A stretch of DNA of 64,000 nucleotides from Giardia intestinalis (Eukaryota), in the NCBI GenBank assembly GCA_000002435.2, contig CM018791.1; one strand, given 5' to 3'. The notes below the pieces were generated by a model. That model was not told the DNA's origin. It ran no database searches and saw only the letters and a list, made by a program, of their open reading frames with translations. Made by a program: the position numbers and the translations under genes. Of the stretch, positions 2,666 to 42,827 are shown piece after piece (position 1 is the first letter of the stretch; every line of letters begins with the position of its first letter).

Positions 2666-2681
2666 GGGATTTGTCATGCAG

Positions 2682-6132: not shown

Positions 6133-6186
6133 ATTAGTCAGTCTGCAAAGAACTTGTAAACTTTAGCTAAACTATTTAAAAAGGAA

Positions 6187-9100: not shown

Positions 9101-11280
9101 TTACGGCTCAGAAAGAACAGCAGGAGGCGGCCATCTCCAAGTTTGTAGCGGTCGTTGCTGACAATAAAACGCTCATTGCTCAACATAAGGAAAGCTACGC
9201 AAATCTTACTTCCGAACTTTCAGTAATGATTGCAAACAAAAATGAATGGGTGAAGGAATACAAGCAAATATATGAGCGGGATATAAAGGATGCTGACTAC
9301 TCCTTTGGGGAGGAACATGAGCACCTTCTTGAGAACTTTTCAGATTGCTGGAGCGAGACCATTTCTGTGAGTGACGAGGGAGTTGAGGCACGACCTGCAT
9401 TCAAGCCATTTGGAGTGTATAATCCTTCGGAGCTCCAAGAACCATACTTCACCTCCATGGACGAGATGAAGACAGCTCTAAGGCAGCAGGATGCCGCAAT
9501 GGACCGACGAAAGAGCAGAAGAGAGCAGCGTCGTCGGCTAGAGTGTCTGATAGCAAAAAGAAGAGACCCTATTTTAGAGCAGCTTCGTCAAATGAACGAC
9601 GATATCCAGACTGCTCGCGCAGAACTTCTGGACTCAATGATCACTGGAGAAGGAATTTCTCCCGCGCCAACAGACAAAACGGACAAGACTAAGCACAATT
9701 CTTTGATGCCAAAGCAGGCGCTGTCTGTGTCGCCGTCCATGCTCGCACAAGCTGTTGCAATAAAGTCTCTTGCTGCCAAATACGCTACTGTCATGGGCTT
9801 CTTCACTAAACACACACTTAGTGGGGCATACTGTGTTACCTCCACTTTTGAGCCTGGGCGTACTCGACAACCTGCAGAGGTAGGATTGCTAAGTTTCCGA
9901 AACGGAAACATCACTGGAGAGATGCACCAGACTGATGGAGGCGCTAAGCGTGCATCGTCTACCGGTCCTAATTCACGCGGCAATACAACTGTCGCCGGAA
10001 TGTCTACAAATGCATCCATTAATCCCAATGCAAATAGAGGGTCTGCAGGAGGTTTATCCAATGATAATAAGCAGCTTCATGCTCTTAAACCTTATGCTCG
10101 GAATGCCCTTGCTTACATTTCACAACAACTGGAGGTTGAGCGAAAGGCGCATGCCTTACTTACGCTGATATCATCTCCCTATGGACGTTATCTAATGCCT
10201 TTCCATAAAATACTATCGGACGGGGCACCGTTCCCCAGTGGAGCTCGGTCGAACTCCTTTTATATTATGTGTTCAAAGAGTGATCTATTTATTCCAGCAG
10301 AGCTCCAGGAAGCCATCTTAACGCTGCAGAATCTTTCGGAACGCTATTTCCGCACATCTATTGGTCGTAAAGACCTTTATCTAATTGCAGCAGCTTGTCA
10401 GACTGAACTGGATCTGCGAGCCCAAAATGCGACCAACACTAATAATCCCAATAATGCCAATAATGAACTTCAGCACCTTGGATTGAGCAGGAGGCCTCCA
10501 AACTTGGATTACATGCTTCTTTTGCAAGGGAAGCTAAACAACTTGATCCCTTATTTTGAGGACACCCGCTCTACGTCTGCCATCTCCGGTCTTAATAAAA
10601 GCGCCACGCACCGATCTCTTGCTGACCCCGGCAGGACGTCGCAGCGCTACCCCCAGACCTGCAAGTACATCCAGACCATCCTGGAGCAGGTGATGCGCCG
10701 CTTTGTGGCGATGCCCGGGGTCCTTTCGGGCCTTTATGAGGAGTGCATTGAGGGCATCAGCAACATCAAGGGCCGCATCCTGGAGGCCGTCGTCATAGAG
10801 CTGATCAATATCCTGCAGACCGGGTCCACTGAAAATGTCGATAGGGTTCGCGGCGGCTGCTCCTTCTACGAAAATAACGTGATGCTCCTGCGCTGCCTCC
10901 GCCTGCTCCAGACCGCCATAAACACGCTGGGTGCCGGGACAGTCTTTGAGATACTGCGCGGCCTTGTCTACCCCGTGACTCTTTTGCGCGGCAGCGGCTT
11001 CATCAATGGGGTGGAGAAGACTCAGAAGCCGGTGGCTGAGTCTGACAGCCCAGACAAGAAGCCTCGGAGGTTCAACTACCTGACAGAAGAGGATGTCAAG
11101 AGCGTCGCCAAGATGGTGTCCAAGCCAGAGAACATTACCGGGAGCTTCGACGCATCGCTGCTGCAGAAGATAGACGATAGCAATGCGCGCAGGCGTCTGC
11201 TTCTACAGACACAGTACGGCGGCCGCCATCACCTCAATGCAATAAGACAGCGCAGGCGTCGTGCCGAGATATACTTCTAA
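6187..11280 (+). CDS. CDC7-like Ser/Thr protein kinase with ~1280-aa C-terminal extension
   Basis: ATG at 6187 after tatttaaaaaggaa. The N-terminal kinase domain has [44 protein letters not shown], a long kinase insert, then [11 protein letters not shown] and [13 protein letters not shown]. This closely parallels the CDC7 signature motifs and CDC7's insert architecture. The remaining ~1280 aa are low-complexity or coiled-coil. Confidence 0.7.
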   Translation: [1697 protein letters not shown]

Positions 11281-11400
11281 GTGAATGAAGCACTTCGTTC
11301 GCCCCCGGGTAGTCCTAGCGATCAAAAAGCTGGTGTGGTGTTGGCCTCGAGTGCAGGTGCTAAGGGGCTATGCAATATACACCAGTGAAAATATTACGTG

Positions 11401-14326
11401 GTGGTGCTGCTGGGGCCTGCCTGCGGGCGCTGTCCGCAAATCTCGCGAGTAAATTCCCGCTCAATTTTTGGCGATGTCCGGAGACGAGGGTTGGTCGTGT
11501 ATCAATATAAAGACCACAGTGGTGGTAGGGAGGAGCTGTCTGCATTCCTCGGCTGTTCTGCGGGTGTGTGCTCGGTCTAGGTGTGCACATAGGTCCTTTT
11601 GGAGATCAAGCCGTCCTGCAGGCTCGCTGGTCTACTAGGGTGCCTCTTCTTGTTCTCCCTTCACGGTGAGTGAAGCTCAGGTCTTTGTTGTCATTCTCAA
11701 TACTGTCCATACAGATCAGCAGCAGCTAACGGGGCGTTCTCTCCTGGTTGGGATTCCACTCGACTGCGTGTCCAGTCTTGGGCCCCTTCTCGATCGTTGT
11801 CGTCGGGTCCCGGGGATGGGCTCATTCGGTTGTCAGAAGTAGGATGACAGGAGGCGGTCGCTCTGGGTGACCAGGCTTTCGGCCCGGCCCGTCTGATCAG
11901 CTTCGTCGGGTGCTCGTTCGCCTCTGCAGCCATGTGGGCGATGGCGAAGGCAGCCCGGACAGAGAGCTTCTCGACGTCCACGTAGAGCTCCTCGAGGTGC
12001 CTCTTGGACTTGGGGTGGAGGGATCCGTCTGTCTCGTCCCTGTACTTCTTGACCTTCTCGTTGTAGTAGGCATCCATCTGGCGGGGCTGGATGACGCCCA
12101 CATCTATCGCCTTGCACTTGTCGACGAGCCAGATGTCGGGCTTCTGGTTCTGGTCGCTGAGGTGGCTGTGGGTCTTGACCTCCAGCTCTGCGTTGAACTT
12201 CCCTGAGACGCGGAGGTACAGGCACGCGACGATCATGTCGTGCCTCGTGGCAGCCCGGGCAGGTGCCTCTTGTCTGCGCCATGATCGAGCCATCTCTCTC
12301 CTTCAGGGCCCTTTCCTCCTCGGTCAGCACGCCGCCGCTCTGTCCGGAAGCTGGTGTATGCGTGAGGAGGCGGTTGAAGTAGGTCCCTTCCCCTGCAGTG
12401 CCTGGCCTTCCACCGACAGCTCCACCGGGTCTCTGGCTCCCTTGTTGACGTCCGGGGAGGCCCATACCCTCCGCAGCTCGTCGTGGCAGAGCCCCGGCAT
12501 GAGCAGGCCCGGGCCGCCCTTCTCCTTCGGGTACGCCAGGAAGTCGACCAGGCGATCGCAGCTTCTGTTAGTTATTTTGCTGAAGCCTTGTGCGATGTCT
12601 GTCGAGCTCCTCGTAGTCCGCCTTGTCCGATGTTACTTCGACCAGGGGGGCGTAGTTCACCATCGGGACCACACAGAGTGACACCAGGATGAGCTTCTGG
12701 TGGGTGGTTATGGGGGCAGTCTCAGCACCTGCGATGGCCTTCGGCGCGGGACTGGCAGGGGTGGGGGACACCGGGTGGTTGAGGAAGGTCACCTCCTCGC
12801 CCGCCATGGTGGACTTGCATTTGTCGCTCCTGATCGTCAGGCCCATGGTCTGCTGTGTTATCGCGCCTGCCGGGTAGGCCTCGTCGTGGAGCGTCACGAT
12901 GTCGTCCGCTAGGCAAGGAAGGTGATGCCCCTCTCCCTGAGGCGTCTCAGAGGCGCTCGGTAGCCATGCAGAAGAGGAACATGCTGAGCGGGTCGCCCTG
13001 GGGGACGCCGCAGACCTCGCACTTCACGTCCCGGCTGTGCCTCAGGTCGAGGAAGTTCCTGATGTAGTCGACCAGGACCTTCGGGACGCCCGCCTCGTTC
13101 AGGGCTCTGACGACCTCCGCCCTTGGGAGCGAGTTGAAGGCCTTCTTTGTGTCGAGGGAGACGGCGTGCATCCCCGGCCTGCTGATGAGCTCGTGGGCCC
13201 TCCTCACGCCTACCGCGTATGCGTTCTGCATGAAGGCGATCTGTTCGCACGAGAGGTAGTTGGCATGCTTGATCAGCCGCTTCAGCAGGACGCGGTGGAA
13301 GATGTTTGTCACCGTCTTGCCTATCGCGATCGGACGGTATCCGTCGGACTCCTTCGGGATGAGGATCGCCCGGAACTCGAACATGGCCGTCACCTCGGGC
13401 ATCGCCTCGGGGTGGGTGGTCAGCTCGTTGTACGCCTGCGTGAGGTACTTCACGAAGCTATCGTTCTGCTTCATCGCTTTGAGCTGGACCGGCCCGAGAC
13501 CAGACAGGCCTTGTTGAGGGTTCCAAACAGGACCTTCCTCATTTCTTCTTCGGTTGCCACTCCAGCCCCGTCGAGCTCATCGATGGAGGGCAGTCAAGGC
13601 CAACGTGGCCTTTGGGAGGACGCACGGGTGTCTCATCAAGGGCGCGGAGGGCCTTGGCAACTGCTCCGAAGCTCAGCGCGTTGTTCACCCTATTTGGAGC
13701 GGTGTCTCCTTCTGGGTCTGCTATGCTGTGCTGCTTGCTCCGGGCCTCCTACCAGGGTGTTCAGGCCCTTGTTAACGAGGAGCGCGACCCCAGTCCCGGC
13801 CTGCTCGATGCTCGCGATCATGCGCGCACCCTGGTGGATGAGCATGGCAAGCTCTGTCTGGTTCGGTATATGGGATGGAATGATCAGTTTGTCGTCGCCT
13901 AGCATTCTGTGTCTGTCATCGTTTGCTTCTCTCAGGTGCTCGGTCAGTTGCTTGGCGCTCTCGCACGGTAGGCCACAGAGCCAGCGTGTGTGTCCTGCTG
14001 AGAGAGTAAATGTCTTCGGAGTGGTCTCCCAAGTAGAGACTCACGGCTTGCTCTCTGGGTGTCCCTGAGGTACGATTTTGCATTCGTAGTGCAGATCTGG
14101 TCCTCGCGGGCTCTCCTTCGCCTCAGGTCCAGCTGTGCTCACGCCCGTAGAACAGCCGTGGAACGCACAGACCCCAGATCCACACGTGGAGGGAACCCCT
14201 CTTTGCCCCCGCTGTGGTTATCGTTGCAACCCGCGGCCAACCCTCATCTCCGGACTGGCTGGGAATTGAGCAAGAGTTTACCCGTGAGACCTCTGGACCA
14301 TACCTGCAGACAGGCCTCAGCGGCAC
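11401..14326 (-). mobile_element. degenerate non-LTR retrotransposon copy (Genie family, GilD-like: RT + C-terminal REL-endonuclease); arm A of a ~3-kb inverted repeat
   Basis: Minus-strand ORF fragments carry RT motifs (RPIAIGKTVTNIFHRVL; VSLDTKKAFNSL; GVPQGDPLSMFLF; LADDIV after a frameshift; GLTIRSDKCKS). REL-endonuclease motifs are also present (CPGC...RHNMIVA...KPDIWLVDKCKAIDVGV...YYNEKVKKY). The element is >99% identical in reverse complement to 22682-25660; homologous positions sum to ~37008. Confidence 0.65.
11697..13905 (-). pseudogene. frameshifted RT/REL-endonuclease ORF remnants of the retroelement
   Basis: The RT and endonuclease motifs are split over at least three reading frames (track ORFs 12947..13474, 12568..12897, 11833..12465 and 11697..12293, all on the minus strand). 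Confidence 0.6.
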
Positions 14327-15030
14327 ACCACTGGAAGCAACCGGTGGATGGAGTGAATGTGTCCATGAGCAGAAGGGCGGGCCGGGCGTCTCTTCCGCAC
14401 CAACCAGGGATCGACCTGGGGGTCCACGGGCACACGCTACAGTCCAGGAGGACACATGGTGAGCGCACCCCGACGGCAGGATCGATGGTCCACTCCACGA
14501 GGAGGCGAGAAGGAACCCGAGTAGACATTCCAAGGCCATGACACATGCGACCTTCATCATGTAGCACCGAGCGACTCTGGACTACATGCAGGGATCATTG
14601 CTGCCAGGGCCAGATCGTTGCAACTGACAATAGGGCCTTGGGGTAGCGGTGCTTACCAGGTGTCAGGCAGCAGCCGACCCCCACAGAAGTTGAACGAAGG
14701 AAAGGAGAAGCCCTTGGAAGGCACTGCGAAGAACATGCAGTGACCCCGAAGGGCGAGGAGGCATAGGGGTCTTCTCTCGCTAGAGTTAGATGGCACCTGA
14801 GTGAAAGACCCTCTTGGTGAAATGGCAACTCGCATGAAGGACTTACTCAAGCAGCAGCTAATAAACTAGCTTCGGTGACACAGGGTAAATTTCATAAATC
14901 AAGATTTGTTTTATAGTATTTTGGCACGGGCTGGGAATGTGAGGTACTCCTCTTGTAAAGTCTATCTTCCAGAGTTCTTTGCTCCTTTTGAAGAGACACG
15001 ATAGGTTTACTTGTGAGGTCACAAAGCAGT

Positions 15031-17232
15031 CTAAGGATCATTATGACCATCGACACCAAGTGTACTACTGCTGCTAAGGAGAGACAATATTTCGGAATAG
15101 CCCCTAGTCTCAAGCTCACTAAAAAAGAACTTGTTAGATTTGTCTACTAGGTGTCCCTCCTTTTCAAATAGCAGTTTTACTATTTCTAAGTGGCCAGTAA
15201 ATGCTGCATACATGATAGCAAGCATACCATAATTGTCCTCCATACCGTTTTCATACTTCATTAGCAGTTCTACTATTTCTAAGTGGCTATTAAGTGCTGC
15301 ATACATGAGAGCAGTCTTATTTTTACTATCTTTCATTCCAGCCTCACACCCCAGCAATAGTCTTACTACCTCCAGATAGCCATCAGAGGCCGCCCTCATA
15401 AGGGCTGTTACGCCATTGAGGTCCTTCATAGTGCTCTCACGGTTCATTAGCATTTTCACTATCTCTAAGTGCCCCCTAGATGCGGCCTCCATGAAAGCAG
15501 TTGTTCCAAAAACATCTTGTGCACAACTTTCATGGTCTATTAGTAGTCTTGCTACCTCTGTGTGGCCGCCTATTGCTGCTCGCATTAATGCCGTGACACC
15601 AAATTCATCGGTTGGCTCAAGAATATCCATAACAATTTTGTGCCCTGCATCCCTAGCAATCGTCAGGGCCGTATTACCTTCGTTGTCGACTAGGTCCCTC
15701 TCGTACGGGATCAAAATGGAGGCAGTTTCTGCGCTACCATTCTCTGCAGCGATCATTAGGGCAGTCCAGCTACTGTTATTCCTCTTTCCATGCTCATGAG
15801 GGACGAGAATTTCAACTACCTCAGGGTGGTTGCTGTGTGCGGCGTGCATGAGTGCAGTCCAGCCATTCTTGTCTCTGAAGCCATTCTCCTCCTCAACAAG
15901 CAGCTTGACAGGACCGATGTGCCCCTGCTGGGCTGCGTGCATGAGGGCCGTCATCTTCTGCTCATCGCGCTGACCAATATTGAATCCCTCGTTGACCAAG
16001 GTCCAAACGGCCTCCATGTCATTCGTGTGTGCAGCACGTATCAGCCTAGGGAGCAAGAGGAGATTGAACTGAGAGTTGGATGTAGCTAATCCAGTGCTAA
16101 GTTGTGCGATTCTATTTTCTAGTACTCTTATTATGGCTAGGTACTCTTTATCCCGATCTTCAAGCGCATCAATCCTGGTGAATTTAATTCGAGGCTCCTG
16201 TCCCAAACTGTCGATTTTACTTTGCCTACTCTCGAGGGCTGTCTCAAGAGCAGTGATCCTGTCCAATTTGGCCTCCGCATCCGCTTCCAGAAGTGCGATC
16301 CTGGTATTAATATTACTTAGCGCATCCTCCAAGGAGCCGCATTTGCCTTCTAGTACCACTTGCCGAGGTTCTAGCTCACTAACTGGGACGTCGAATGTGG
16401 TGAGCATTTCATACAGCTCCTTGGCTGTCAGTCTTTCCTCAGGATCTAGTACAAATATCCTCTTTAGAATGCCCTTTATGAAGTTACTAGTTACACCGCT
16501 CAGGTCTGGCCTCCACCCGTCGACGAAGACCTTTGCCGGCTCCTCACCCTCCAGGAAGTCCGGTCTCCTCAGAGTTACTAGTTCATAAATGATGACCCCG
16601 AGGCTCCACATGTCGGAAGCATGGCTGGTCTCATTACGGAGGAGAATCTCGGGGGCCATGTACGCCACTCCCATGATAGTGCTCTCACTCCACAGGGCGT
16701 CTATGCAGAGGCTAAGGCCAGCAAGGACGACGTGTTTGTTATCTGCGCTGATGAGGATATTGGTAGGCCTAAGATCGCAGTGAACAAGCTCCTCAACATC
16801 TACCTCACTAACGCTGTGGAGATAGGCGAGGGCGGCAGCGATCTGTTTCACAATGAAGAGGATCACGCTAACAGAGATAAAGTTTCTCTTTCGTTTGTAC
16901 TTGGTGAGAAGACGCTTGAGAGTCTTGTCGTGGCGATCCATGACAATGTAAATGAAGCCCTCGTTCTCAATAATTTGATGGTACCTGAGGATCCCTGGGT
17001 GGGAGAGCTCGGGGAAGGTAATCAGCTCTAGTCTGCTGGCATCCACGCTGCTCCTGTCCAGATGATCGAGGATGATCTCCTTCACGGCGAGACTCGGATA
17101 GCCCTTGAGGGAGTAGACTGCGCCCGTGATGCTTTCATTAAGCACGTCGTCTATCAGCTCGTGGAGCTCCCTGGGGGTGAACATAGGCACCCTGAGAGCC
17201 ACCGTTGCAGACTCAGATGAAGCAGCGTGCAT
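15031..17232 (-). CDS. NEK-like kinase-domain protein (probable pseudokinase) with coiled coil and C-terminal ankyrin repeats
   Basis: Genuine ATG at 17232 after A/T-rich ccaaaataataaaacggg. The kinase-like N-terminus has VKEI, HCDLRPTNIL (HRD changed to HCD), AGL in place of DFG, and YMAPE, so it has lost the DFG Asp and the Gly loop. This is followed by a coiled coil and more than 8 ankyrin repeats (TALMHAAQQGH..., TALMIAAENG...). Confidence 0.7.
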   Translation of the reverse strand: MHAASSESATVALRVPMFTPRELHELIDDVLNESITGAVYSLKGYPSLAVKEIILDHLDRSSVDASRLELITFPELSHPGILRYHQIIENEGFIYIVMDRHDKTLKRLLTKYKRKRNFISVSVILFIVKQIAAALAYLHSVSEVDVEELVHCDLRPTNILISADNKHVVLAGLSLCIDALWSESTIMGVAYMAPEILLRNETSHASDMWSLGVIIYELVTLRRPDFLEGEEPAKVFVDGWRPDLSGVTSNFIKGILKRIFVLDPEERLTAKELYEMLTTFDVPVSELEPRQVVLEGKCGSLEDALSNINTRIALLEADAEAKLDRITALETALESRQSKIDSLGQEPRIKFTRIDALEDRDKEYLAIIRVLENRIAQLSTGLATSNSQFNLLLLPRLIRAAHTNDMEAVWTLVNEGFNIGQRDEQKMTALMHAAQQGHIGPVKLLVEEENGFRDKNGWTALMHAAHSNHPEVVEILVPHEHGKRNNSSWTALMIAAENGSAETASILIPYERDLVDNEGNTALTIARDAGHKIVMDILEPTDEFGVTALMRAAIGGHTEVARLLIDHESCAQDVFGTTAFMEAASRGHLEIVKMLMNRESTMKDLNGVTALMRAASDGYLEVVRLLLGCEAGMKDSKNKTALMYAALNSHLEIVELLMKYENGMEDNYGMLAIMYAAFTGHLEIVKLLFEKEGHLVDKSNKFFFSELETRGYSEILSLLSSSSTLGVDGHNDP

Positions 17233-17544
17233 CCCGTTTTATTATTTTGGTACTTTACTGTTTTAGAAACGGGTCGTTTTACATAGGTTAATATCTACAG
17301 GTCTATAGCGATCCCATGTCTGTGGAGAGCTTCTGCATAAGAGGCGAGAAGGCTGCCTGTGCAATCGTTTCACCTACCCCTGGTGTTCCAGTGCTGGCCG
17401 GGGGTGAGAAGGCCAGCCCCCTCTGACCTCTGTGGAAACGGATGGTTGTGTGACCCACTGACAGCCATCACTTCACCCTAGTGGCTGGCCATCCCTTTGC
17501 ACAGCTGGAGGGGACTACGATCTATCATCAAATTCGATCAACAG

Positions 17545-18294
17545 TTAAGCGAGTTCACTCACAGGTTCTTTAGGCGGTATCCTCAAGTAGGGATCCACTA
17601 GCCTAATACCATTGCTTTCAAGAAGAGATACTACCCTAGAGTGATTCCACCTATTAGCCATACGGATGGCAGACTCGCCACCGACATTCTTCTCCCTCTC
17701 CAGCAGTAACCTGACACAGTCTAGATGATTATAGCCTGCTGCAACCGTGAGAGCAGTACAGCCCTTACCCTTCTTCATGCCACCTTCAGTCCTTAAAAGT
17801 AGTCTCACGACCTCAGCGTGGCCAATAAATGCTGCCCACATAAGGGCTGTCCATTCATTACTGCTCCTCATGCAACTCTCATGCTTTCTCAGCAGCCTCA
17901 CCACCTCAGCGTGTCCAAGCACCGCGGCGACCATCAGGGCTGTCCCCTCATATATATTTATGCCTCCCACATTGACAAGCTTCGCCACCATTCTTGCCTG
18001 ATAAGGGATGTAGCGCTTCACCGCATCCACATCGTTCCTCTTAGCTGCCTCCATAAGTGTGGTGACGCCGTTTCCGTCCACGCTGCCTTCATCATCTAGT
18101 TCTGAAGACTCAGTAAGACTGTTCTTGCCCGCGCCCTCTTCGCTCGTGTCCTTCTCTGGCGCGAGGGGCGGGGCGCAGTCGTGCTTCTGAAGGAACTGAC
18201 CTAAATCATCCGCAGACGACATTTTTATTTCGTAGTCACAAAGGAAACGCGTGTAACGGTAAACTTGCGATTCACGGTATTGTTTACAGATCAT
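17545..18294 (-). CDS. ankyrin-repeat protein (Protein 21.1-like); more likely start is the second ATG at 18222
   Basis: Ankyrin repeats are present (TTLMEAAKRNDVDAVKRY; TALMVAAVLGHAEVVRLL; TALMWAAFIGHAEVVRLLL; TALTVAAGYNHLDCVRLLL). The upstream ATG at 18294 lacks A/T-rich context. The in-frame ATG at 18222 (MSSADDLGQF...) is preceded by gaaataaaa. Confidence 0.6.
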   Translation of the reverse strand: MICKQYRESQVYRYTRFLCDYEIKMSSADDLGQFLQKHDCAPPLAPEKDTSEEGAGKNSLTESSELDDEGSVDGNGVTTLMEAAKRNDVDAVKRYIPYQARMVAKLVNVGGINIYEGTALMVAAVLGHAEVVRLLRKHESCMRSSNEWTALMWAAFIGHAEVVRLLLRTEGGMKKGKGCTALTVAAGYNHLDCVRLLLEREKNVGGESAIRMANRWNHSRVVSLLESNGIRLVDPYLRIPPKEPVSELA

Positions 18295-18622
18295 CCAAGA
18301 TAGTTCGCTTCACTGACTATTCACTGTGCCGTGCTCCTCTGTAGTAACAAGTTGACTGTTTAGGGGTAATGAACTTTATGGGGCCTCTCTTCGGCAACCA
18401 GGAGCTCCCGGCTCTCGTAAGTGGAAACAACGCCAGAGCTAGTGCTCGTGGCGATCCAAGCAAGCCTCGCCCATCCGAGCAGGCCTGCGTCGTCCTGTCC
18501 TACGAGGAGTACTTGATGGGTGAATTGCAATAGCTGATCATTACTAGAGGGTTCCGTGGACATGCATTGCTCGAGCGTGTCTCAGAGCACTGCCTACAAG
18601 TCTATATACGGCACCAGTATGC

Positions 18623-18637
18623 GTTTACTACCTAAGT
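18623..18637 (-). promoter_or_regulatory. VSP extended polyadenylation signal ACTTAGGTAGTAAAC
   Basis: Reverse complement of 18623-18637 is ACTTAGGTAGTAAAC, 11 nt downstream of the VSP stop. It matches the VSP consensus ACTYAGRTAGTRAAY, which contains the general Giardia AGTRAAY signal. Confidence 0.7.
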
Positions 18638-18648
18638 CACATCTAAAT

Positions 18649-20748
18649 CTACGCCTTCCCGCGGCAGAGGAACCACCAGCAGAGGAAGCCGACGAGACCC
18701 CCAACGACGACGATGACTGCGACGGAGATGCCGGCTATGGCGCCCATGCTGAGGCCACTCTTGTTCGTGCTTCCGCCAGTATTGTCGCCGGTATTATCAT
18801 CCGTTTCGAAACATATGAACTTGCCGTTAACAGGTGTCGCGCACTGCCTGCATCCAGCCAGCCCCTCGGAGCACCTCTTGCACAGCCCATTACTGCTACT
18901 CTCCTTGTAATATCCAGGAGCACATACCTTGCATGTAGTAGCACCGGCTTCGCAGGTGTAGCAACTTTCGTGGCATTTCGTGCAGGCACTGCCAACCTTC
19001 ACATATCCGTCCATACACCTAGAACAGTCCTTAGTGGTGGTGCACTCAGCGCACCCAGTGTAGCAAGCCACAAGGCTCTCGCCTGTCAGGCTAAATCCTT
19101 CTTTCGGAGTCTTGCAGGTGCCGCCTGTACTCTGCGCACTCAAGCACACTGTCGACCCCGGAAGCTGGCTGGTGGAGTAGCAGCCGCCGTTCATCTTGAA
19201 GAAGCCGTCTGCGCAGACATTGCACACGCCACCGGTAATGCTTCCATCTTTGCACTTATCTGTGCGACTGACTTTAACAGCACAGACACCGTTCTGGGGA
19301 TACTCGTTGTTTTGACTACAGACAGAGCAGTATTTTGTCCCCTCAACAGTCAGACCGCACTCCCTGCACTTACCTGTGCCTGTGCCCGCCGCGCACTCGG
19401 CCCCACATGTGCCAGTGTTTCCTGTGGATCCGTAGGTGAGCGCGCTTCCAGACTTACAGCTTGTGCAATCATTGGCAGTATTTCCGCTACATGTCTTACA
19501 GCTGGAATCGCAAGGGGAGCACGCTTCGCCGTAGAAGCCGTCCTTACAGAGACCGCACCCGCCATTTTCACTGCACGCGAGACAGTTGGCGACCTCGCAC
19601 TTCTTGCAGACCCTCTTGTTGCCCTCTGTGCTACTGTAGTAGCCTAGAATATATTCGCAGTGATCTATGCACTGGCTTGTTGGCGCCAGATACTTGTTGG
19701 ACAGACATTCGGTGCAGATCTCTTTGTTTGTTTGTGCACCACTGCATGCCTTACAATCCTGAGTATTGCATGGATTTGAAGGGGAATCATTTGGCACGCA
19801 TTGTGTTTCTTCTTCGTTAAGCTTAAATCCATCATTGCACGTGCAAGTATTCTCGGTCTTGGCTTCTGAGTTATCAGGGCAGCTACTAATGCACGACTTC
19901 TTTCCGAGTCCAAATACCATATTTGCCTTACACGCTGTGCAGGTAACGGAGGTGTCACTTTTGGTGCATGTTTTGCAGTTCTCAAACGTTCCTGCCGTGC
20001 ACGGCTTGCAACTCTTAGGCTCGGTATCATCTGGGTAGAGGGTAGAATCGGTGGAGCACTGATTTCCTTCTACACATATCCCCGTTAGACTACCGCTTTC
20101 CTTCTTTAAATACATCTTACCGGTAGCCTTGCACTTGCTGCACTTCTTTGTGGTTGTCGCCTCTGTACATGTAGCGCAGTTCTCGTCGCCGCAAGCTGTG
20201 CAGGTCGTAGTACCTGCGCCGAAATAGCCTTCATCACACGCGGTGCATGTAGCAGGGCCAGTATTGCTTGGAGGAGTACATGTTTTACATTGATCTACAC
20301 CTTGGTATTGATCTGCCCCCGTCGTGTCATTACAGGAGATGCACGATTGCTTATTAGCGGCTGCCACTGGACTCTTAAAGAATCCTTCCACACAATCCTT
20401 ACAAACCCCTATTACCTTATCGCTTGCCGCTCCCCCTACTGGATCGGCACAGATAAGCCCGCCCAATTCGCCAGCAAATTCATAACATCCGCCCTTGTAC
20501 ATGAAGTATCCATCGCCGCAAGAGCCACACTTTCCTTGAGCAGGGGAAGCGCATTTAGCAGCTGCTTGGTCAGTCCCTGCTGGTACACATTCTCCATCAA
20601 TAAGGTGGTCTGTTTCGGTTTTACACTGTGTGCAAACTTCCGTTTTGCCAATCATATCACACTCACCATCTTTACACTTACTTGCAGTTGGCCCACTGCA
20701 CGATGCTGCAAGAGCACTTATCAAAAGGCAGGGAGCTAGTAGCAACAT
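18649..20748 (-). CDS. vsp: variant-specific surface protein (VSP), complete
   Basis: Signal peptide MLLLAPCLLISALAAS, then ~11% Cys with many CXXC motifs and GGCY motifs. The C-terminal TM is GAIAGISVAVIVVVGGLVGFLCWWFLCRGKA* with stop at 18649-18651. Track ORF 18649..20835 begins at a TTG; an alternative in-frame ATG at 20793 would add 15 residues. Confidence 0.85.
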   Translation of the reverse strand: MLLLAPCLLISALAASCSGPTASKCKDGECDMIGKTEVCTQCKTETDHLIDGECVPAGTDQAAAKCASPAQGKCGSCGDGYFMYKGGCYEFAGELGGLICADPVGGAASDKVIGVCKDCVEGFFKSPVAAANKQSCISCNDTTGADQYQGVDQCKTCTPPSNTGPATCTACDEGYFGAGTTTCTACGDENCATCTEATTTKKCSKCKATGKMYLKKESGSLTGICVEGNQCSTDSTLYPDDTEPKSCKPCTAGTFENCKTCTKSDTSVTCTACKANMVFGLGKKSCISSCPDNSEAKTENTCTCNDGFKLNEEETQCVPNDSPSNPCNTQDCKACSGAQTNKEICTECLSNKYLAPTSQCIDHCEYILGYYSSTEGNKRVCKKCEVANCLACSENGGCGLCKDGFYGEACSPCDSSCKTCSGNTANDCTSCKSGSALTYGSTGNTGTCGAECAAGTGTGKCRECGLTVEGTKYCSVCSQNNEYPQNGVCAVKVSRTDKCKDGSITGGVCNVCADGFFKMNGGCYSTSQLPGSTVCLSAQSTGGTCKTPKEGFSLTGESLVACYTGCAECTTTKDCSRCMDGYVKVGSACTKCHESCYTCEAGATTCKVCAPGYYKESSSNGLCKRCSEGLAGCRQCATPVNGKFICFETDDNTGDNTGGSTNKSGLSMGAIAGISVAVIVVVGGLVGFLCWWFLCRGKA

Positions 20749-22681
20749 TGTGGCTCTGCTCAGATTGTTAGGTACATGCGAATGGGGAACCATTCGTAAC
20801 CTGACCTCTAGCCATCCAATGCTAGAGCTTACCAATCCAGTAGCATAGCAATTACTTTAGGAATGCTGATCTATTTATAGAGTACATCACACAAAATAAC
20901 TATATGACGTTTACTTAGGTAGCCGATGCATCAGTTATCGTATCATTATAGATTTATAGGTTGCACCATAAAAGTTATGCGCAAACCTCCACATAGATGC
21001 CTAAGGCCACAAGTCGAAGACGAAAAGCAGAAGCTAAAAAGCAATTCCCCGTGACTCTTGACCCCCACTTCTGCACCGTCCCCATTCGATGCAGGACGCC
21101 TCATCATCCGGTCCTTCCAAGTCTCTATGCATGATCCGTGGCCTTGTGTTCCGCACTGTGCCTTGCATCCTGGTAGTCACCTCCACCGGGTCCTTGCCAG
21201 CGGGGCCGACGGTCTCACAGCGATCGCGTATGACAGAGCAGTCACCATCTGATGTGCGAGCCCTGTGATAGGCCGTGATGTTGGAAGGCGACATCGGTTA
21301 AAGAGGAGGCATGGCCACACATTACGAGCCACGATGACATGGCACATTGCATAGCATCGTGATATATGCGTGCATAACCGGTACACCAATAGGCATAGAA
21401 ACAGCACACCAGTGCCACCAGGTCATGATGACCACTCTACCCACCAGTTATTTTTAAGACTGTGCTACTGGAGCCTACCTACAGGCGTGGTCCAGAGACT
21501 TCAGAAGTAAGTCTCACCCAAGTCATGGTCAGTGTGGAGACAAGGGTTGATCGTTGATGGTATATTAAGGGAATTTCCCTCCATTTGTATATTAGAGTCT
21601 CTTGTATTCCTCGGTCGCTTCATGCGATGTGCGTGTCCAGGGGTGCTCGTGTGTCTGTCCAGGGTTCAGACCTTTGCAAGGACACACGTTGTCCATTAGT
21701 ATGCCTCGCTTTTTAATCTGCCGTCTGGTGAACGAGCCTGGGTTGTCACTTCTTTTTCAATAGAAGTCTCCTCTGTCGCGACGGCTGCTATCGAGGTCTG
21801 GCTTTACTGGCTGGGGTCGTCTCTCGGTGACCGTCCAGCCGTGGTCCCGGAGGCCGGCGTTCCCTCCTGTTCGTAGTCCCCCAGGTCAGTGGGTCCAGTC
21901 GACAGTTAGAAGCAGGCCGGCAGGAGGAGTTGCCGGGTGGACGCCACAAGGTAGTGAAGGCCAGACAGAGCGCTCCCGGCGTCGCTGGGCCCCTTGAACT
22001 TAATTTACTCTCCACTTCACCGGGGTGGGGTTGTCCCCTGCTACCTGAGCGACCTCCCATGCGAGCTACTACCGCCCTGGACAGGTGGATCTCCCGCTTA
22101 CTCCCAAACAGAGTCCAGAACCCAAAATCCAAACCTAGAATCCGGTGCCGTAATTCCGGCGGAAAAAGACGCCCTAACGTCCAGCCTTCATCAAACAACA
22201 GACCCGCGGCTGCTCCCATGAAAGCGCCACCGAGGAAACCTCACAGAACCCTGAAGCGAAAAGCCAAGAAGGCACCCAGCAGCGTGAACGAAAGGGCGTG
22301 GAGACGAAAGCAGGGAAGCTCCGCACCTCCCTCCACCGAACCTCCCTGTCATGGAGAGCGGTGCATGGTGGCAGGCCCTCAATGGTCCCAACGGGGTCAA
22401 TCACTGACTACACGAACTGGCTCAAGGATGCTGGAGTTCACTCAAGGTGCTGCGCCTTCGGATCTCTCCTACGCGATCTGCAGCACGAGGAGCCGCCACA
22501 CCTTCTTCATATCACCGGAGGGCCTCGAGCGGCACGTCTGGGGAACTCTCTCCCGTCCGGGCACCTCCTGCAGCCTTGTGACAAGCAGACAGTGCCAGCC
22601 CACGCACCAGGCCCCGGCGCTCGAGCGCAGTGTCCTACGCGGGCCCTCGCCGTTGCCTGCCGTGATGCCCCGGACCAGTGG

Positions 22682-25660
22682 GTGCCGCTGAGGCCTGTCT
22701 GCAGGTATGGTCCAGAGGTCTCACGGGTAAACTCTTGCTCAATTCCCAGCCAGTCCGGAGATGAGGGTTGGCCGCGGGTTGCAACGATAACCACAGCGGG
22801 GGCAAAGAGGGGTTCCCTCCACGTGTGGATCTGGGGTCTGTGCGTTCCACGGCTGTTCTACGGGCGTGAGCACAGCTGGACCTGAGGCGAAGGAGAGCCC
22901 GCGAGGACCAGATCTGCACTACGAATGCAAAATCGTACCTCAGGGACACCCAGAGAGCAAGCCGTGAGTCTCTACTTGGGAGACCACTCCGAAGACATTT
23001 ACTCTCTCAGCAGGACACACACGCTGGCTCTGTGGCCTACCGTGCGAGAGCGCCAAGCAACTGACCGAGCACCTGAGAGAAGCAAACGATGACAGACACA
23101 GAATGCTAGGCGACGACAAACTGATCATTCCATCCCATATACCGAACCAGACAGAGCTTGCCATGCTCATCCACCAGGGTGCGCGCATGATCGCGAGCAT
23201 CGAGCAGGCCGGGACTGGGGTCGCGCTCCTCGTTAACAAGGGCCTGAACACCCTGGTAGGAGGCCCGGAGCAAGCAGCACAGCATAGCAGACCCAGAAGG
23301 AGACACCGCTCCAAATAGGGTGAACAACGCGCTGAGCTTCGGAGCAGTTGCCAAGGCCCTCCGCGCCCTTGATGAGACACCCGTGCGTCCTCCCAAAGGC
23401 CACGTTGGCCTTGACTGCCCTCCATCGATGAGCTCGACGGGGCTGGAGTGGCAACCGAAGAAGAAATGAGGAAGGTCCTGTTTGGAACCCTCAACAAGGC
23501 CTGTCTGGTCTCGGGCCGGTCCAGCTCAAAGCGATGAAGCAGAACGATAGCTTCGTGAAGTACCTCACGCAGGCGTACAACGAGCTGACCACCCACCCCG
23601 AGGCGATGCCCGAGGTGACGGCCATGTTCGAGTTCCGGGCGATCCTCATCCCGAAGGAGTCCGACGGATACCGTCCGATCGCGATAGGCAAGACGGTGAC
23701 AAACATCTTCCACCGCGTCCTGCTGAAGCGGCTGATCAAGCATGCCAACTACCTCTCGTGCGAACAGATCGCCTTCATGCAGAACGCATACGCGGTAGGC
23801 GTGAGGAGGGCCCACGAGCTCATCAGCAGGCCGGGGATGCACGCCGTCTCCCTCGACACAAAGAAGGCCTTCAACTCGCTCCCAAGGGCGGAGGTCGTCA
23901 GAGCCCTGAACGAGGCGGGCGTCCCGAAGGTCCTGGTCGACTACATCAGGAACTTCCTCGACCTGAGGCACAGCCGGGACGTGAAGTGCGAGGTCTGCGG
24001 CGTCCCCCAGGGCGACCCGCTCAGCATGTTCCTCTTCTGCATGGCTACCGAGCGCCTCTGAGACGCCTCAGGGAGAGGGGCATCACCTTCCTTGCCTAGC
24101 GGACGACATCGTGACGCTCCACGACGAGGCCTACCCGGCAGGCGCGATAACACAGCAGACCATGGGCCTGACGATCAGGAGCGACAAATGCAAGTCCACC
24201 ATGGCGGGCGAGGAGGTGACCTTCCTCAACCACCCGGTGTCCCCCACCCCTGCCAGTCCCGCGCCGAAGGCCATCGCAGGTGCTGAGACTGCCCCCATAA
24301 CCACCCACCAGAAGCTCATCCTGGTGTCACTCTGTGTGGTCCCGATGGTGAACTACGCCCCCCTGGTCGAAGTAACATCGGACAAGGCGGACTACGAGGA
24401 GCTCGACAGACATCGCACAAGGCTTCAGCAAAATAACTAACAGAAGCTGCGATCGCCTGGTCGACTTCCTGGCGTACCCGAAGGAGAAGGGCGGCCCGGG
24501 CCTGCTCATGCCGGGGCTCTGCCACGACGAGCTGCGGAGGGTATGGGCCTCCCCGGACGTCAACAAGGGAGCCAGAGACCCGGTGGAGCTGTCGGTGGAA
24601 GGCCAGGCACTGCAGGGGAAGGGACCTACTTCAACCGCCTCCTCACGCATACACCAGCTTCCGGACAGAGCGGCGGCGTGCTGACCGAGGAGGAAAGGGC
24701 CCTGAAGGAGAGAGATGGCTCGATCATGGCGCAGACAAGAGGCACCTGCCCGGGCTGCCACACGGCAGACCCTCGACCACGACATGAACTGCCCGAAAAC
24801 GGCGTGGACCAGGACCACGAGGCACAACATGATCGTCGCGTGCCTGTACCTCCGCGTCTCAGGGAAGTTCAACCGGAGCTGGAAGTCAAGACCCACAGCC
24901 ACCTCAGCGACCAGAACCAGAAGCCCGACATCTGGCTCGTCGACAAGTGCAAGGCGATAGATGTGGGCGTCATCCAGCCCCGCCAGATGGATGCCTACTA
25001 CAACGAGAAGGTCAAGAAGTACAGGGACGAGACAGACGGATCCCTCCACCCCAAGTCCAAGAGGCACCTCGAGGAGCTCTACGTGGACGTCGAGAAGCTC
25101 TCTGTCCGGGCTGCCTTCGCCATCGCCCACATGGCTGCAGAGGCGAACGAGCACCCGACGAAGCTGATCAGACGGGCCGGGCCGAAAGCCTGGTCACCCA
25201 GAGCGACCGCCTCCTGTCATCCTACTTCTGACAACCGAATGAGCCCATCCCCGGGACCCGACGACAACGATCGAGAAGGGGCCCAAGACTGGACACGCAG
25301 TCGAGTGGAATCCCAACCAGGAGAGAACGCCCCGTTAGCTGCTGCTGATCTGTATGGACAGTATTGAGAATGACAACAAAGACCTGAGCTTCACTCACCG
25401 TGAAGGGAGAACAAGAAGAGGCACCCTAGTAGACCAGCGAGCCTGCAGGACGGCTTGATCTCCAAAAGGACCTATGTGCACACCTAGACCGAGCACACAC
25501 CCGCAGAACAGCCGAGGAATGCAGACAGCTCCTCCCTACCACCACTGTGGTCTTTATATTGATACACGACCAACCCTCGTCTCCGGACATCGCCAAAAAT
25601 TGAGCGGGAATTTACTCGCGAGATTTGCGGACAGCGCCCGCAGGCGAGGGCCCCGGCAGC
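22682..25660 (+). mobile_element. degenerate non-LTR retrotransposon copy (Genie/GilD-like); arm B of inverted repeat
   Basis: Reverse-complement near-identity to 11401-14326 (for example track ORFs 22940..23971 = 13037..14068 and 23534..24061 = 12947..13474). It carries the same RT and REL motifs and the same frameshifts. It has one ~56-nt insertion relative to arm A near 24.6 kb and a few substitutions at the outer end. Confidence 0.65.
23103..25367 (+). pseudogene. frameshifted RT/REL-endonuclease ORF remnants
   Basis: RT motif-bearing fragment at 23534..24061. Motif C (LADDIV) is in a different frame at ~24100. REL motifs (CPGC / RHNMIVA / KPDIWLVD...AIDVGV...EK) are spread over two frames in 24543..25367. 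Confidence 0.6.
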
Positions 25661-27188
25661 TCGTTGCAGGCGGTGACAGAAGGGTCTCTCTGGCCAGTTG
25701 GGCAAGCATCATCCTATGCTTGCCACGGCCGCTGGGAATGCCGGTGTCACGTGTGTAGCTCGTAGGGTGAGCTCTTTTCGGAGCGCCCAATCTCCTTTTT
25801 ATCCGTGAAGGCGAGACCTGCTCACAACAGACCAATGACGACAGATAGATGGCTCCATATTGTTCACTCAGGCTGTCTACCCCAAGCAGTAGGGCCGTTC
25901 TCCTTCGTGAGGCAGAGGAGGCCATGTACCCACAAAGATACCCTTAAGTGAAGTGGCTTGGATGTGATATGTGTTTTCGGAGACTCTAGTGTACACAGTT
26001 GCTCATCCTCCGACACTGAGCCGGTCCGCAAGCCGCTGGCCACGCTGGAGTGCCCCGAAGCAGCCCAGGAGAGTGCGTGTGCTGATAGCTTGTCCGCCAG
26101 ACCCTCCTAGCAGCAGAGCGCCGTCGTGGCAGGAGAGCCTGCCCCTTGCATCGGCCGATCGGTTGCTGAGACCCCTGGTGCTCTGTCTGGAGCGGAGACT
26201 GTCCATGAGGGCCCTGTACGCTGCTCCCCTGCACCGACTGGCACAGCAGGGGGACCGGATGCCGAGGGACACCTCCAGCGTCTCGGGTCTCTACAGGACA
26301 GGACACACGGCAGGGACATCTGCATGCGGGCCAGAAGTCCTGCTCGGCCCCGTCCCTCGGCTGACGCCTTGGCCCCTCGGGAGCCCTGTCAGCACCACCG
26401 GAGGCAAGGACTCTCCAGGAGCGCTGCACCGGGCCCGCATGGAGTGGATGGCCCCACAGCCACTGCACGGGCCTCTCGGGCAGGGGGTCTCTTGCCGTGG
26501 CGGGGCTTCAGGCATGCCATCGGGACTGTCCGACGGTCACCGGTTGGGCCCTGTGTGACAGCAACAGACGAGAAGACTGTCCCACAACGAAATATCCCTC
26601 GCTGGAGGACTGTCAGCAGGGCAGGGGAAGCTGTGGCCCACTGGGGGAGTGAACGATCTCAGTGGGTCCAGGCGCACTGCACTGCGGGCCCCGTCGGGCC
26701 GGTCTCTGACGGGCGCCGCGATCACTCTGCCCGGTCTGGCAGATCACGAGGGGTCTGAGGCCGGCCTATTGGGAGGAGGACCAGGGCCCTCGCTGATGGT
26801 CGAGCAGAGTCACCACAGGGGGGCACGAGCTCGAGTGAATGAGGGCCCTCTTAGCAGCGCGCATGTCAACCGAGCGAGGAGAATGACATGGCAGTCACCA
26901 AGGAGCCATGACTTCTGAGCCTTCTGGGCTCTGCGCCGGGCCGGACATCAGCACAGCCCGCCTGCCGGTAGCACTGCCGCGGGGGTCTCCGTCGTGTGAG
27001 TGCCTGGGGTGAGCCGCTTGGGCACGGAGACGGGCTGTGCGGCGCCCAAGAGTGGAAGACCACCGCGCTCTGGTGCTGTGGGCCGAGTCGAGACAGGGGC
27101 CTCCAAGGCAGGGGTGGAACAGCGCTCCCCCCGTGTGCCGTGCTGGGTGGCCACAGACGGGGCAGGGGCCACCGCAGAGGACCCTCTA

Positions 27189-29351: not shown

Positions 29352-29365
29352 CTTAGGTAGTGAAT
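29351..29365 (+). promoter_or_regulatory. VSP extended poly(A) signal ACTTAGGTAGTGAAT (overlaps the TGA stop)
   Basis: Matches ACTYAGRTAGTRAAY. The identical signal follows every array unit at 31308-31322, 33214-33228, 35168-35182, 37069-37083, 40791-40805 and 42748-42762. Confidence 0.7.
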
Positions 29366-29373
29366 GCTGTACA

Positions 29374-29430
29374 GTGATAGTGATAGTGATAGTGCTATGT
29401 GGTGTGTGGGGTGATAGTGGTGGTGTGGGA
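29374..29430 (+). repeat. inter-unit junction microsatellite (GTGATA)3GTG...GGTGATAGTGGTGGTGTGGG (alpha-type junction)
   Basis: Directly visible tandem GTGATAG repeats. The same junction recurs at 33237-33293 and 40814-40870. Confidence 0.8.
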
Positions 29431-31308: not shown

Positions 31309-31332
31309 CTTAGGTAGTGAATGCTGTACAAT

Positions 31333-31392
31333 GTGTGATAGAAGGTGATAGTGGGTGATAATGGGTGATAGAGGGTGATAGTGGAGTGTGAT
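31333..31392 (+). repeat. inter-unit junction decamer minisatellite (NNGGGTGATA)4-5 (beta-type junction)
   Basis: The sequence gtgtgata gaaggtgata gtgggtgata atgggtgata gagggtgata gtggagtgtgat shows a period-10 repeat. Copy-number and sequence variants occur at 35193-35250, 37094-37152, 38895-38948 and 42783-42832. Confidence 0.8.
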
Positions 31393-33214: not shown

Positions 33215-33293
33215 CTTAGGTAGTGAATGCTGTACAGTGATAGTGATAGTGATAGTGCTATGTGGTGTGTGGGGTGATAGTGGTGGTGTGGGA

Positions 33294-35168: not shown

Positions 35169-35245
35169 CTTAGGTAGTGAATGCTATACAATGTGTGATA
35201 GAGGGTGATAATGGGTGATAATGGGTGATAGGGTGATAGTGGAGT

Positions 35246-37066: not shown

Positions 37067-37148
37067 GTACTTAGGTAGTGAATGCTGTACAATGTGTGAT
37101 AGAAGGTGATAGTGGGTGATAATGGGTGATAGAGGGTGATAGTGGAGT

Positions 37149-38870: not shown

Positions 38871-38943
38871 CTCAGGTAGTGAATGCTATACAATGTGTGA
38901 TAATGGGTAATAGAGGGTGATAGTGTGATAGTGATAGTGGAGT

Positions 38944-40791: not shown

Positions 40792-40870
40792 CTTAGGTAG
40801 TGAATGCTGTACAGTGATAGTGATAGTGATAGTGCTATGTGGTGTGTGGGGTGATAGTGGTGGTGTGGGA

Positions 40871-42748: not shown

Positions 42749-42827
42749 CTTAGGTAGTGAATGCTGTACAATGTGTGATAGAAGGTGATAGTGGGTGATA
42801 ATGGGTGATAGAGGGTGATAGTGGAGT

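Follow-up and report, generated by a model that had tools for sequence, protein, structure and literature searches.

A near-identical inverted pair of dead Genie 2/GilD retrotransposon copies around a NEK, ankyrin, and VSP segment in Giardia intestinalis

The inverted arms and the enclosed genes

The window, namely the whole 64,000-nt stretch of DNA analysed here, lies on a 1.97-Mb contig of the Giardia intestinalis WB-C6 reference genome, and its proteins exactly match WB-C6 KAE8303319-21, KAE8303323, KAE8303324, and KAE8303326-29. Self-BLAST identified two arms, A and B, which are mutual reverse complements of 2,929 and 2,986 nt, separated by a spacer of 8,340 nt (the 8.3-kb segment). The main features of the locus are as follows.

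6187..11280, plus strand: outer flank of arm A, CDC7 kinase KAE8303321.1 (protein match)
11406..14334, minus strand: arm A, dead but full-length non-LTR retrotransposon of the Genie 2/GilD family (identity to arm B, exact WB protein matches, tblastn)
15031..17232, minus strand: enclosed gene 1, NEK kinase with ankyrin repeats (Pkinase E = 8e-32, Ank_2 E = 1e-66)
17545..18222, minus strand: enclosed gene 2, ankyrin repeat protein 1, KAE8303323.1, 225 aa (Pfam, protein match)
18649..20748, minus strand: enclosed gene 3, VSP, KAE8303324.1, 699 aa (Pfam VSP E = 1e-133, exact match)
21434..21616, plus strand: degenerate solo relic resembling the 5' terminal repeat of the family (64-72% identity to the 5' ends of DH copies)
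22675..25660, plus strand: arm B, second copy, in opposite orientation to arm A (identity to arm A, WB protein match, tblastn)
27000..44640, plus strand: outer flank of arm B, VSP/pseudo-VSP array (repeated units 83-99% identical, self-BLAST)

The sequence-only reading, made from the letters of the window, had described the enclosed genes as VSP and NEK-ankyrin genes, and the Pfam and protein matches agree, giving a NEK-ankyrin protein, an ankyrin repeat protein, and a VSP. The NEK protein has a 99% identical counterpart in metagenome contigs of assemblage AII, and the second gene was modelled in 2007 as a 249-aa protein reaching 18294. No Pfam domains were found in the spacer ORFs of a further search or in a 582-aa ORF specific to isolate DH, which is described below.

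Global and MAFFT alignments of the two arms demonstrated an identity of 99.83% over 2,927 aligned columns. That reading had proposed both near-identical reverse-complement arms (>99%) and an alignment to check them; the alignment upheld the high identity, and the proposed coordinates were off by at most 8 nt. A repeat search delimited two perfect inverted blocks with 100% identity, one of 2,086 nt (12241-14326 and 22682-24767) and one of 770 nt (11419-12188 and 24876-25645), and the identity between the arms ends abruptly on both sides. The arms differ by five substitutions, three indels of 1-2 nt, and one 57-nt indel, present in arm B at 24761-24817 and missing in arm A between 12247 and 12248. 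As the search found no further inverted repeats of at least 100 nt in 9-28 kb, a chance origin of the arm pair is excluded; tandem repeats were absent from 9-28.5 kb. The inverted repeat of near-identical arms is real.

Long-read assembly is known to fail at near-perfect inverted repeats, and a single element might have been duplicated or mis-joined by the assembler. This explanation is scarcely credible, however, since the flanks differ between the arms and each arm carries its own variants. The 2007 Sanger annotation already contained the A-specific XP_001705712 and XP_001705713 and the B-specific XP_001703946, and the short-read contig L009, which matches the window at 100% identity, ends 30 nt into the arm identity at the outer edge.

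The retrotransposon copies and their ends

Within the arms, the following parts of the element were delimited.

14335..14362, minus strand: additional 5' family terminus in arm A only, 28 nt, CATTCACTCCATCCACCGGTTGCTT..., aligned with DH copies L023 and L024
22683..22871, no strand assigned: 5' terminal inverted repeat of arm B (arm A equivalent about 14137-14325)
23666..24113, plus strand: reverse transcriptase (RT) domain of arm B (Pfam RVT_1, motifs, R2 relatives)
24747..24971, plus strand: putative restriction-like endonuclease region of arm B (motifs and alignment with apparently intact relatives)
24761..24884, plus strand: patch of about 125 nt with most of the internal arm differences (the 57-nt indel and four nearby differences)
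25493..25658, no strand assigned: 3' terminal inverted repeat of arm B (arm A equivalent about 11406-11571)

The ORF fragments of arm A exactly match the WB proteins XP_001705711, XP_001705712, and XP_001705713, and the 274-aa ORF of arm B at 24543-25367 corresponds to XP_001703946.1; these matches are labelled 'Reverse transcriptase/endonuclease, putative' in WB. The arm ORFs fall in one 90% cluster with the 878-aa consensus AAM12686.1, which we take to be the Genie 2 consensus, its record name being silent on this point. In the comparison with a published consensus that the sequence-only reading had suggested, tblastn covered residues 9-878 of AAM12686.1 on both arms, so that the whole family ORF is spanned, and its start is still readable in arm B at 22925. 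Additional Genie 2 fragments were not found within the window by tblastn, and ten junction-spanning or alternative-start ORFs had no match in the protein collection. The arm family is presumably Genie 2, and thereby GilD, an equation reportedly drawn by Burke et al. in 2002 and by Arkhipova and Morrison in 2001.

The RT motifs GYRPIAIG (23666), SLDTKKAF (23849), and GVPQGDPLS (23999) of arm B lie in a single frame, whereas motif C, LADDIV (24096), lies in a different one. Pfam RVT_1 matched 23432-24058 with E = 7e-15, and the best solved-structure relatives were R2 retrotransposon proteins (E = 5e-13). Of the endonuclease motifs, CPGCH (24747) and KPDIWLVDKCKAIDVGV (24921) share a common frame, and HDMNC (24778) and TRHNMIV (24817) share another; the region 24747-24971 had no Pfam match, and its assignment is at the motif level. 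Arm A is without the H..C half of the CCHC motif, which falls within the missing 57 nt. These positions agree with the proposal that the RT is split between motifs B and C and that the endonuclease motifs are spread over two frames.

Relative to AAM12686.1, the reading frame changes about eight times along the arms and is interrupted by a TAA stop at 24438, and several stretches are deleted; the DH copies of the family are also frame-broken. The proposal of a dead Genie/GilD-like retrotransposon was borne out by the WB protein matches, the shared cluster, RVT_1, and these frameshifts. Most of the frameshifts are common to both arms, as had been proposed, although a 1-nt deletion at 24873 is private to arm B and the 57 nt are absent from arm A. 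These data indicate that both arms are complete but dead copies of the R2-like Genie 2/GilD retrotransposon. In the literature, the GENIE clade was placed with R2, R4, and NeSL (PMC2790886), and GilD copies are all degenerate, with microhomology-mediated deletions, and adjoin VSPs in gene-poor regions away from telomeres (PMC2861651). The VSP-adjacent placement is shared by the present arms, with a VSP inside the pair and a VSP array alongside, and by the DH copies.

Both arms carry the terminal inverted repeats of the family, of about 190 nt, a feature overlooked in the earlier reading. The 5' and 3' terminal repeats of arm B aligned with a score of 97, compared with 22.8 +/- 4.4 (maximum 42) for shuffled sequences. 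In each of the DH copies, likewise, the first 158-165 nt repeat the 3' end of that copy in inverted orientation, at 86-95% identity, and the outer 95 nt or so of the 3' terminal repeat form a conserved core common to all copies. The inverted repeats of Genie 2 are said by Burke et al. in 2002 to reach 172 bp. The solo relic listed above belongs to the spacer and precedes arm B by 1.1 kb.

Truncation of the 5' ends at different flanks had also been proposed, but neither arm is substantially truncated there: residues 9-878 are covered and the 5' terminal repeats are present in both arms, and at this end arm B falls short of arm A by just 28 nt. About 25-35 nt of the family 3' terminus are missing from both arms, and arm B is nested inside arm A at both ends. 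No target-site duplication was seen, and arm B also has no tail.

The origin of arm B can be considered from these ends. Arm B might be a recent retrotransposition product of the dead arm A transcript, for which an active Giardia element (GilM or GilT, for example) supplied the machinery in trans; a dead master copied via RNA would retain the same frameshifts, and the duplicated unit is approximately one element long. Target-primed reverse transcription requires an intact 3' end, however, and arm B is without at least 30 nt of the 3' terminus and 28 nt at the 5' end, has neither a target-site duplication nor a tail, and the relatives retrieved in a word-limited search included no named GilM or GilT protein. 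Transposition in trans is thus very improbable. The sequence-only reading had argued for duplication or conversion rather than transposition from the shared frameshifts, which are insufficient because a dead master could act in trans; the case against transposition instead rests on the missing 3' terminus, the nesting of arm B, the lack of a target-site duplication, and the age of the pair, and conversion is the better supported cause of the identity between the arms. A DNA-level inverted duplication of arm A, or of a copy resembling it, is the probable origin of arm B.

Age and homogenisation of the pair

In an alignment of six family copies, identity was 90-95% both between the arms and other members and among those members, whereas the arms share 99.83%; judged from this alignment, the pair is exceptional within its family, the arms being far more alike than other members. 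This likeness could be due to youth alone, with no ongoing conversion, if arm A was duplicated once, recently and in inverted orientation, at the DNA level in the WB/AI lineage, with template switching or fold-back repair as conceivable routes. The 2,086- and 770-nt blocks with 100% identity, and hence essentially no clock-like divergence, favour this explanation, as do the nesting of arm B in arm A at both ends and the duplication of 6.9% of the WB genome reported by Xu et al.

The comparison with assemblage AII, whose flanking DNA differs from that of AI by 1-1.8%, points to an older pair. Two AII metagenome contigs of arm-A type, L001 assembled by MEGAHIT (k = 141) and L002 by SPAdes (k presumably 55, the usual largest value), end exactly 141 and 55 nt past window position 14326, the first base of the perfect arm A/B identity. 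In the flank, the samples behind these contigs share 99.76% identity with DH and 98.9% with WB. As both contigs stop one k-mer into the arm-arm identity, the arm pair would predate the AI/AII split; an arm-B-like copy in AII is implied by the stop points of these two short-read contigs and by them alone. WB and the AII isolate DH have in common the junction, at about 11400, where the CDC7-kinase flank meets the element terminus, and both arm A junctions are present in AII. The arm B inner junction and the conserved terminus gave no matches in two JGI metagenome scans, one each. A further ENA contig (L025), considered as the collapsed AII arms, was rejected, since it is just 88% identical to the arms and represents a different family copy.

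The AII contig stops imply the same pair and the same boundary, including the indel at 14327, in a lineage that has diverged by 1-1.8%, which argues against a recent duplication; the patch of five clustered differences also misfits simple youth. A recent origin therefore remains a minority reading, possible but unlikely. The arms are near-identical despite the pair predating the AI/AII split, and gene conversion is therefore indicated, with the reservation that the signal of concerted evolution consists of this age argument and one shared SNP, a C-to-T change in L001 within the shared 141-mer, where both WB arms have C.

The distribution of the arm differences was informative. Edges aside, all differences fall in 24761-24884, where the 57-nt indel is accompanied by four nearby differences (arm A 12180-12239). 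A reading in which conversion had covered the inner 2.1 kb in a single tract while the outer 0.85 kb had diverged was rejected because the differences sit in the patch of about 125 nt and at the edges. In the patch, arm A has family-typical bases together with the deletion, and the identical deletion, CPGCH|EARHDRR, occurs in four other family copies; the patch looks like an ectopic conversion from a third family copy. The 57-nt deletion of arm A is flanked by CCAC microhomology, and a recurrent deletion at this microhomology could mimic such a conversion.

Based on this evidence, the reading that we prefer, with a probability of roughly 0.65, is that of an old inverted pair of dead Genie 2/GilD copies homogenised by conversion, with an ectopic tract in arm A. 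The pair would already have existed in the common ancestor of AI and AII, and its arms would since have been homogenised by intrachromosomal gene conversion, as presumed for identical inverted vsp pairs. Later, a short ectopic conversion tract may have entered arm A from a third, deletion-bearing family copy, which would explain both the missing 57 nt and the four differences clustered nearby.

The proposed recombinogenic character of this variable region stands with regard to structural variability, as DH diverges inside the element terminus and a VSP array follows. Past the shared terminus, the DH contig AHGT01000021 continues into an unrelated ORF of 582+ aa with no RT sequence; either AII is rearranged at this locus or the contig is chimeric.

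Relation to known systems and orientation of the segment

The arms resemble Genie 2/GilD in their match to AAM12686.1, in an R2-like RT with a CCHC motif and a PD..D..K endonuclease downstream of it, and in their frameshifts, deletions (one of them microhomology-flanked), terminal inverted repeats, and VSP neighbours. The element itself is no different from that family, and what sets this locus apart is the inverted 99.83% pair around three genes, other copies sharing 90-95%. With R2 elements, the arms share the best solved-structure matches (E = 5e-13) and the order of RT, CCHC, and endonuclease, although identity is low and site specificity is not among the arm features shown; to our knowledge, terminal inverted repeats are not a feature of R2.

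A parallel is found in the vsp genes. In WB, 14 vsp pairs consist of identical inverted copies that diverge abruptly; identical genes are absent outside these pairs, and the spacers measure 2-4 kb (Adam et al. 2010, PMC2996952). RT remnants lie between 4/7 head-to-head vsp pairs, and spacers reach 12.4 kb in Table 2 of the second report (Xu et al. 2020, PMC7000408). The present arms are likewise near-identical and inverted, share a chromosome and a VSP-rich setting, and diverge abruptly, and RT remnants and NEK genes are also associated with the vsp pairs; here, however, the repeated unit is the RT remnant, and the VSP lies in the 8.3-kb spacer. As the repeat is a dead retrotransposon and the spacer of 8,340 bp holds three genes, the arm pair is an analogue of the vsp-pair class and not a member as defined. 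Both the family and identical inverted pairs are already known in Giardia, and the arms are a further example, with no new element type.

Flip-flop inverted repeats are known from plastids, the yeast 2-micron plasmid, and herpesvirus segments. The arms are similar in being kilobase-long, near-identical inverted repeats flanking a unique segment, and by analogy homogenisation by conversion would be expected; no dedicated recombinase is present here, and the mechanism is alike by analogy only. It is plausible that the arms form a substrate for homologous-recombination inversion of the enclosed NEK/ankyrin/VSP cassette, as had been proposed, and flip-flop of this segment is likewise plausible. 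The segment has one orientation in both of the independent WB assemblies of 2007 and 2020, the 2007 annotation order XP_001705706, 711-713, and 714 agreeing with the 2020 orientation; short contigs cannot distinguish the two cassette orientations. An active flip-flop, with both orientations present among the four genome copies of Giardia or within a culture, is doubtful. If true, inversion would place the enclosed VSP co-directional with the downstream VSP array, or would alternatively change read-through and antisense transcription across the VSP, and would play a part in the dynamics of the VSP repertoire or in the switching of expression.

In annotation and assembly, breaks can be expected at this locus, which may also give rise to structural variation within an isolate. 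Giardia recombination biology is debated, and the locus provides markers with which non-allelic gene conversion and inversion could be measured in this organism: two dead 3-kb repeats with a few arm-specific differences, orthologous AI/AII junctions, and an invertible segment that contains a VSP. Concerted evolution, if confirmed, could explain why identical genes in WB occur solely as inverted pairs.

Extent and identity of the inverted element copies

Alignment of the two arms bore out the near-identical inverted repeat proposed by the sequence-only reading, whose arm coordinates fell within 8 nt of the self-BLAST limits. In gapped alignments, the arms were 99.83% identical over 2,927 aligned columns, differing by five substitutions, three 1–2-nt indels and one 57-nt indel; pairwise identity across six family copies was 90–95%. 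A repeat search recovered two perfect inverted blocks, 12241–14326/22682–24767 (2,086 nt) and 11419–12188/24876–25645 (770 nt), and the limits after extension were as follows, with similarity stopping abruptly at either end.

11406–14334, minus strand: arm A, 2,929 nt; ORF proteins exactly matching WB XP_001705711, XP_001705712 and XP_001705713
22675–25660, plus strand: arm B, 2,986 nt; ORF protein exactly matching WB XP_001703946
Between the arms: spacer, 8,340 nt

WB has been described to contain 14 inverted pairs of identical vsp genes, each pair diverging abruptly, and no identical genes outside them (PMC2996952). The arms appear as a further, somewhat atypical member of the same kind, differing in that RT remnants are the repeated units and the 8.3-kb spacer holds three genes. 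In head-to-head vsp pairs, RT remnants lie between the genes in four of seven, and a NEK gene in another (PMC7000408).

The element was also identified correctly: the WB proteins matched by the arm ORFs are annotated "Reverse transcriptase/endonuclease, putative", the ORFs fall into one 90% cluster with AAM12686.1 (878 aa, "putative reverse transcriptase/endonuclease"), and Pfam recognises an RT domain in one arm B frame (RVT_1, E = 7e-15). We take AAM12686.1 to be the consensus that Burke et al. 2002 gave for Genie 2, which presumably corresponds to the GilD of Arkhipova and Morrison 2001. The RT motifs GYRPIAIG, SLDTKKAF and GVPQGDPLS share a single frame and motif C (LADDIV) lies in a different one; CPGCH and KPDIWLVDKCKAIDVGV occupy one frame, HDMNC and TRHNMIV a second, and a TAA stop stands at 24438. 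In tblastn, each arm covered residues 9–878 of AAM12686.1, interrupted by about eight frame changes and by several deletions, so both arms are full-length but dead copies. The best solved relatives of the family profile were R2 retrotransposon proteins (E = 5e-13), in agreement with the placement of the GENIE clade with R2, R4 and NeSL (PMC2790886). GilD adjoins VSPs and is broken by microhomology-mediated deletions (Gladyshev and Arkhipova, PMC2861651), both of which hold for the arms.

Three ENA metagenome contigs of 1.5–3 kb encode apparently uninterrupted RT-CCHC-endonuclease ORFs (P0126, P0127, P0129), 35–37% identical to the repaired arm protein. These may represent relatives that are still live, either Genie 1/GilM-like or belonging to another Giardia lineage.

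Origin of the pair and probable gene conversion

The arms have a terminal inverted repeat of their own, a feature absent from the earlier reading (arm B 22683–22871 versus 25658–25493; alignment score 97, shuffles 22.8 ± 4.4). Three copies from the AII isolate DH and one metagenome copy (L022–L024 and L025) match the arms end to end, and each starts with a 158–165-nt inverted copy of its own 3' end, 86–95% identical. Burke et al. 2002 are said to have reported such repeats as a hallmark of Genie 2. Aligning the termini showed that arm A retains 28 nt of the family 5' end (14335–14362) beyond arm B, that both arms lack about 25–35 nt of the family 3' end, and that both ends of arm B are nested within arm A. 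No target-site duplications were visible. Retrotransposition requires an intact 3' end, and the truncation, nesting and missing target-site duplication together argue against arm B having originated in this way. The sequence-only reading had preferred duplication or conversion to independent transposition on account of the common frameshifts; its conclusion stands, although the termini and the age of the pair are better grounds, since a dead master copied via RNA would also carry its frameshifts.

Concerning age, two AII metagenome contigs, 98.2% identical to WB, contain the ankyrin and NEK genes and the inner junction of arm A; flanking core genes in these samples were 99.76% identical to DH and 98.9% to WB. 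Both contigs are of arm-A type at the 14327 indel and end exactly 141 nt (MEGAHIT, k = 141) and 55 nt (SPAdes, k presumably 55) past 14326, the first base of perfect identity between the arms. A de Bruijn contig stops one k-mer inside a repeat, and the divergence of the other family copies is too great for k-mers of this length to be shared with them; we therefore infer that both AII samples hold a second copy that differs at 14327 but is identical from 14326 inward, which is the arm B pattern. By the same k-mer logic, a C-to-T change in the AII 141-mer relative to both WB arms would be common to both AII copies. If the pair predates the AI/AII split (1–1.8%), dozens of base differences, rather than five, would be expected between two dead copies free of constraint, and gene conversion between the arms would be the best explanation.

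Apart from edge differences at 14327 and 11411–11418, all arm differences lie inside arm B 24761–24884, where their local density, about 6%, matches family divergence. The 57 nt absent from arm A (at 12247/12248) are flanked by CCAC, and at least four further copies of the family in AII genomes carry the same CPGCH|EARHDRR deletion (P0137, P0140, P0146, P0148; DHA2_154352, DHA2_153930, DHA2_154048 and one ENA protein). At four sites near the deletion, arm A has the states of other family copies; arm B has private states at three of them, the remaining site being ambiguous. Ectopic conversion of a single short tract in arm A, with a deletion-bearing family copy as donor, would account for all five differences together. 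Alternatively, the deletion arose recurrently at microhomology, without ectopic conversion; as a marker it may be either a conversion-spread subfamily character or a recurrent microhomology deletion.

Enclosed genes and their orientation

Exact protein matches assigned the window to the reference assembly of G. intestinalis WB clone C6, on its contig of 1,973,847 bp. The matched proteins were KAE8303319 to KAE8303321, KAE8303323, KAE8303324 and KAE8303326 to KAE8303329, including a CDC7 kinase, an XMAP215 protein, a VSP and ankyrin repeat protein 1; Pfam searches identified the VSP (E = 1e-133) as well as ankyrin-repeat NEK kinases. The intact 733-aa NEK ORF (15031–17232) had no match in the protein collection at any of three starts (733, 717 and 636 aa), and its WB neighbours on both sides are present there. 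Its only close relative (99%) is in the AII metagenome contigs, the next-best WB NEK being 57% identical; the ORF may have another annotated start, carry a pseudogene label or be unannotated.

The enclosed VSP (18649–20748) is at least 90% identical to two 699-aa VSPs, KAE8303272.1 and KAE8303273.1, which lie some 50 genes away along the contig. One of these updates the model XP_001705780, and the RT/endonuclease fragment XP_001705782 stands two accession numbers later in the 2007 annotation, so the VSP and RT-remnant arrangement may recur there. Between the VSP and arm B, a degenerate solo relic of the family 5' terminal repeat (21434–21616, 64–72% identical) is probably left over from an earlier element or rearrangement. 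Spacer DNA separating arm A from the NEK ORF (14335–15030) is about 70% similar to L022 6014–6402, which in DH lies next to a paralogous NEK that is itself accompanied by a Genie 2 copy; a block of NEK gene plus element may therefore have been duplicated long ago.

Flip-flop inversion of this segment had been proposed. Recombination within the arms keeps all four junctions unchanged, so short contigs cannot separate the orientations. The 2007 Sanger accession order, XP_001705706 (ankyrin), XP_001705711–XP_001705713 (arm A) and XP_001705714 (kinase), agrees with the 2020 PacBio assembly, and only this one orientation is documented, in two WB assemblies. For WB, nanopore reads led Pollo et al. 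to predict 162 inversions within the isolate (PMC7048089).

Flanking regions and significance of the locus

An 11.3-kb short-read contig (L009) was 100% identical to the window, and DH was 98.8% identical over 1–11494. The junction of kinase flank and element terminus is common to WB and DH. In DH AHGT01000021.1, positions 1–1800, joining at about 11494, hold a terminus of about 95 nt followed by an ORF of at least 582 aa, with no RT; the ORF starts within the terminus (MSGDEGWP...) and showed neither a Pfam domain nor a match to the window or to any fetched locus. Either AII is truly rearranged at the terminal repeat, or the 454 contig is mis-joined (chimeric).

Beyond arm B lies a 17-kb VSP array, with VSPs or pseudo-VSPs in nested repeats over 27000–44640: 27804–32494 and 39244–43934 are 98.9% identical over 4.7 kb, and many units of about 1–2.8 kb are 83–97% identical. 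From the enclosed VSP to the gene at 48543, a single protein accession (KAE8303325) intervenes. A 5S rRNA gene (45987–46106, plus strand; Rfam RF00001, 85 bits) was observed in the GC-rich stretch that separates the array from the core genes.

Identical inverted pairs were already known, as were the element family and its occurrence in VSP regions. The locus is chiefly valuable because it offers a tractable case in which to test conversion and inversion in Giardia.
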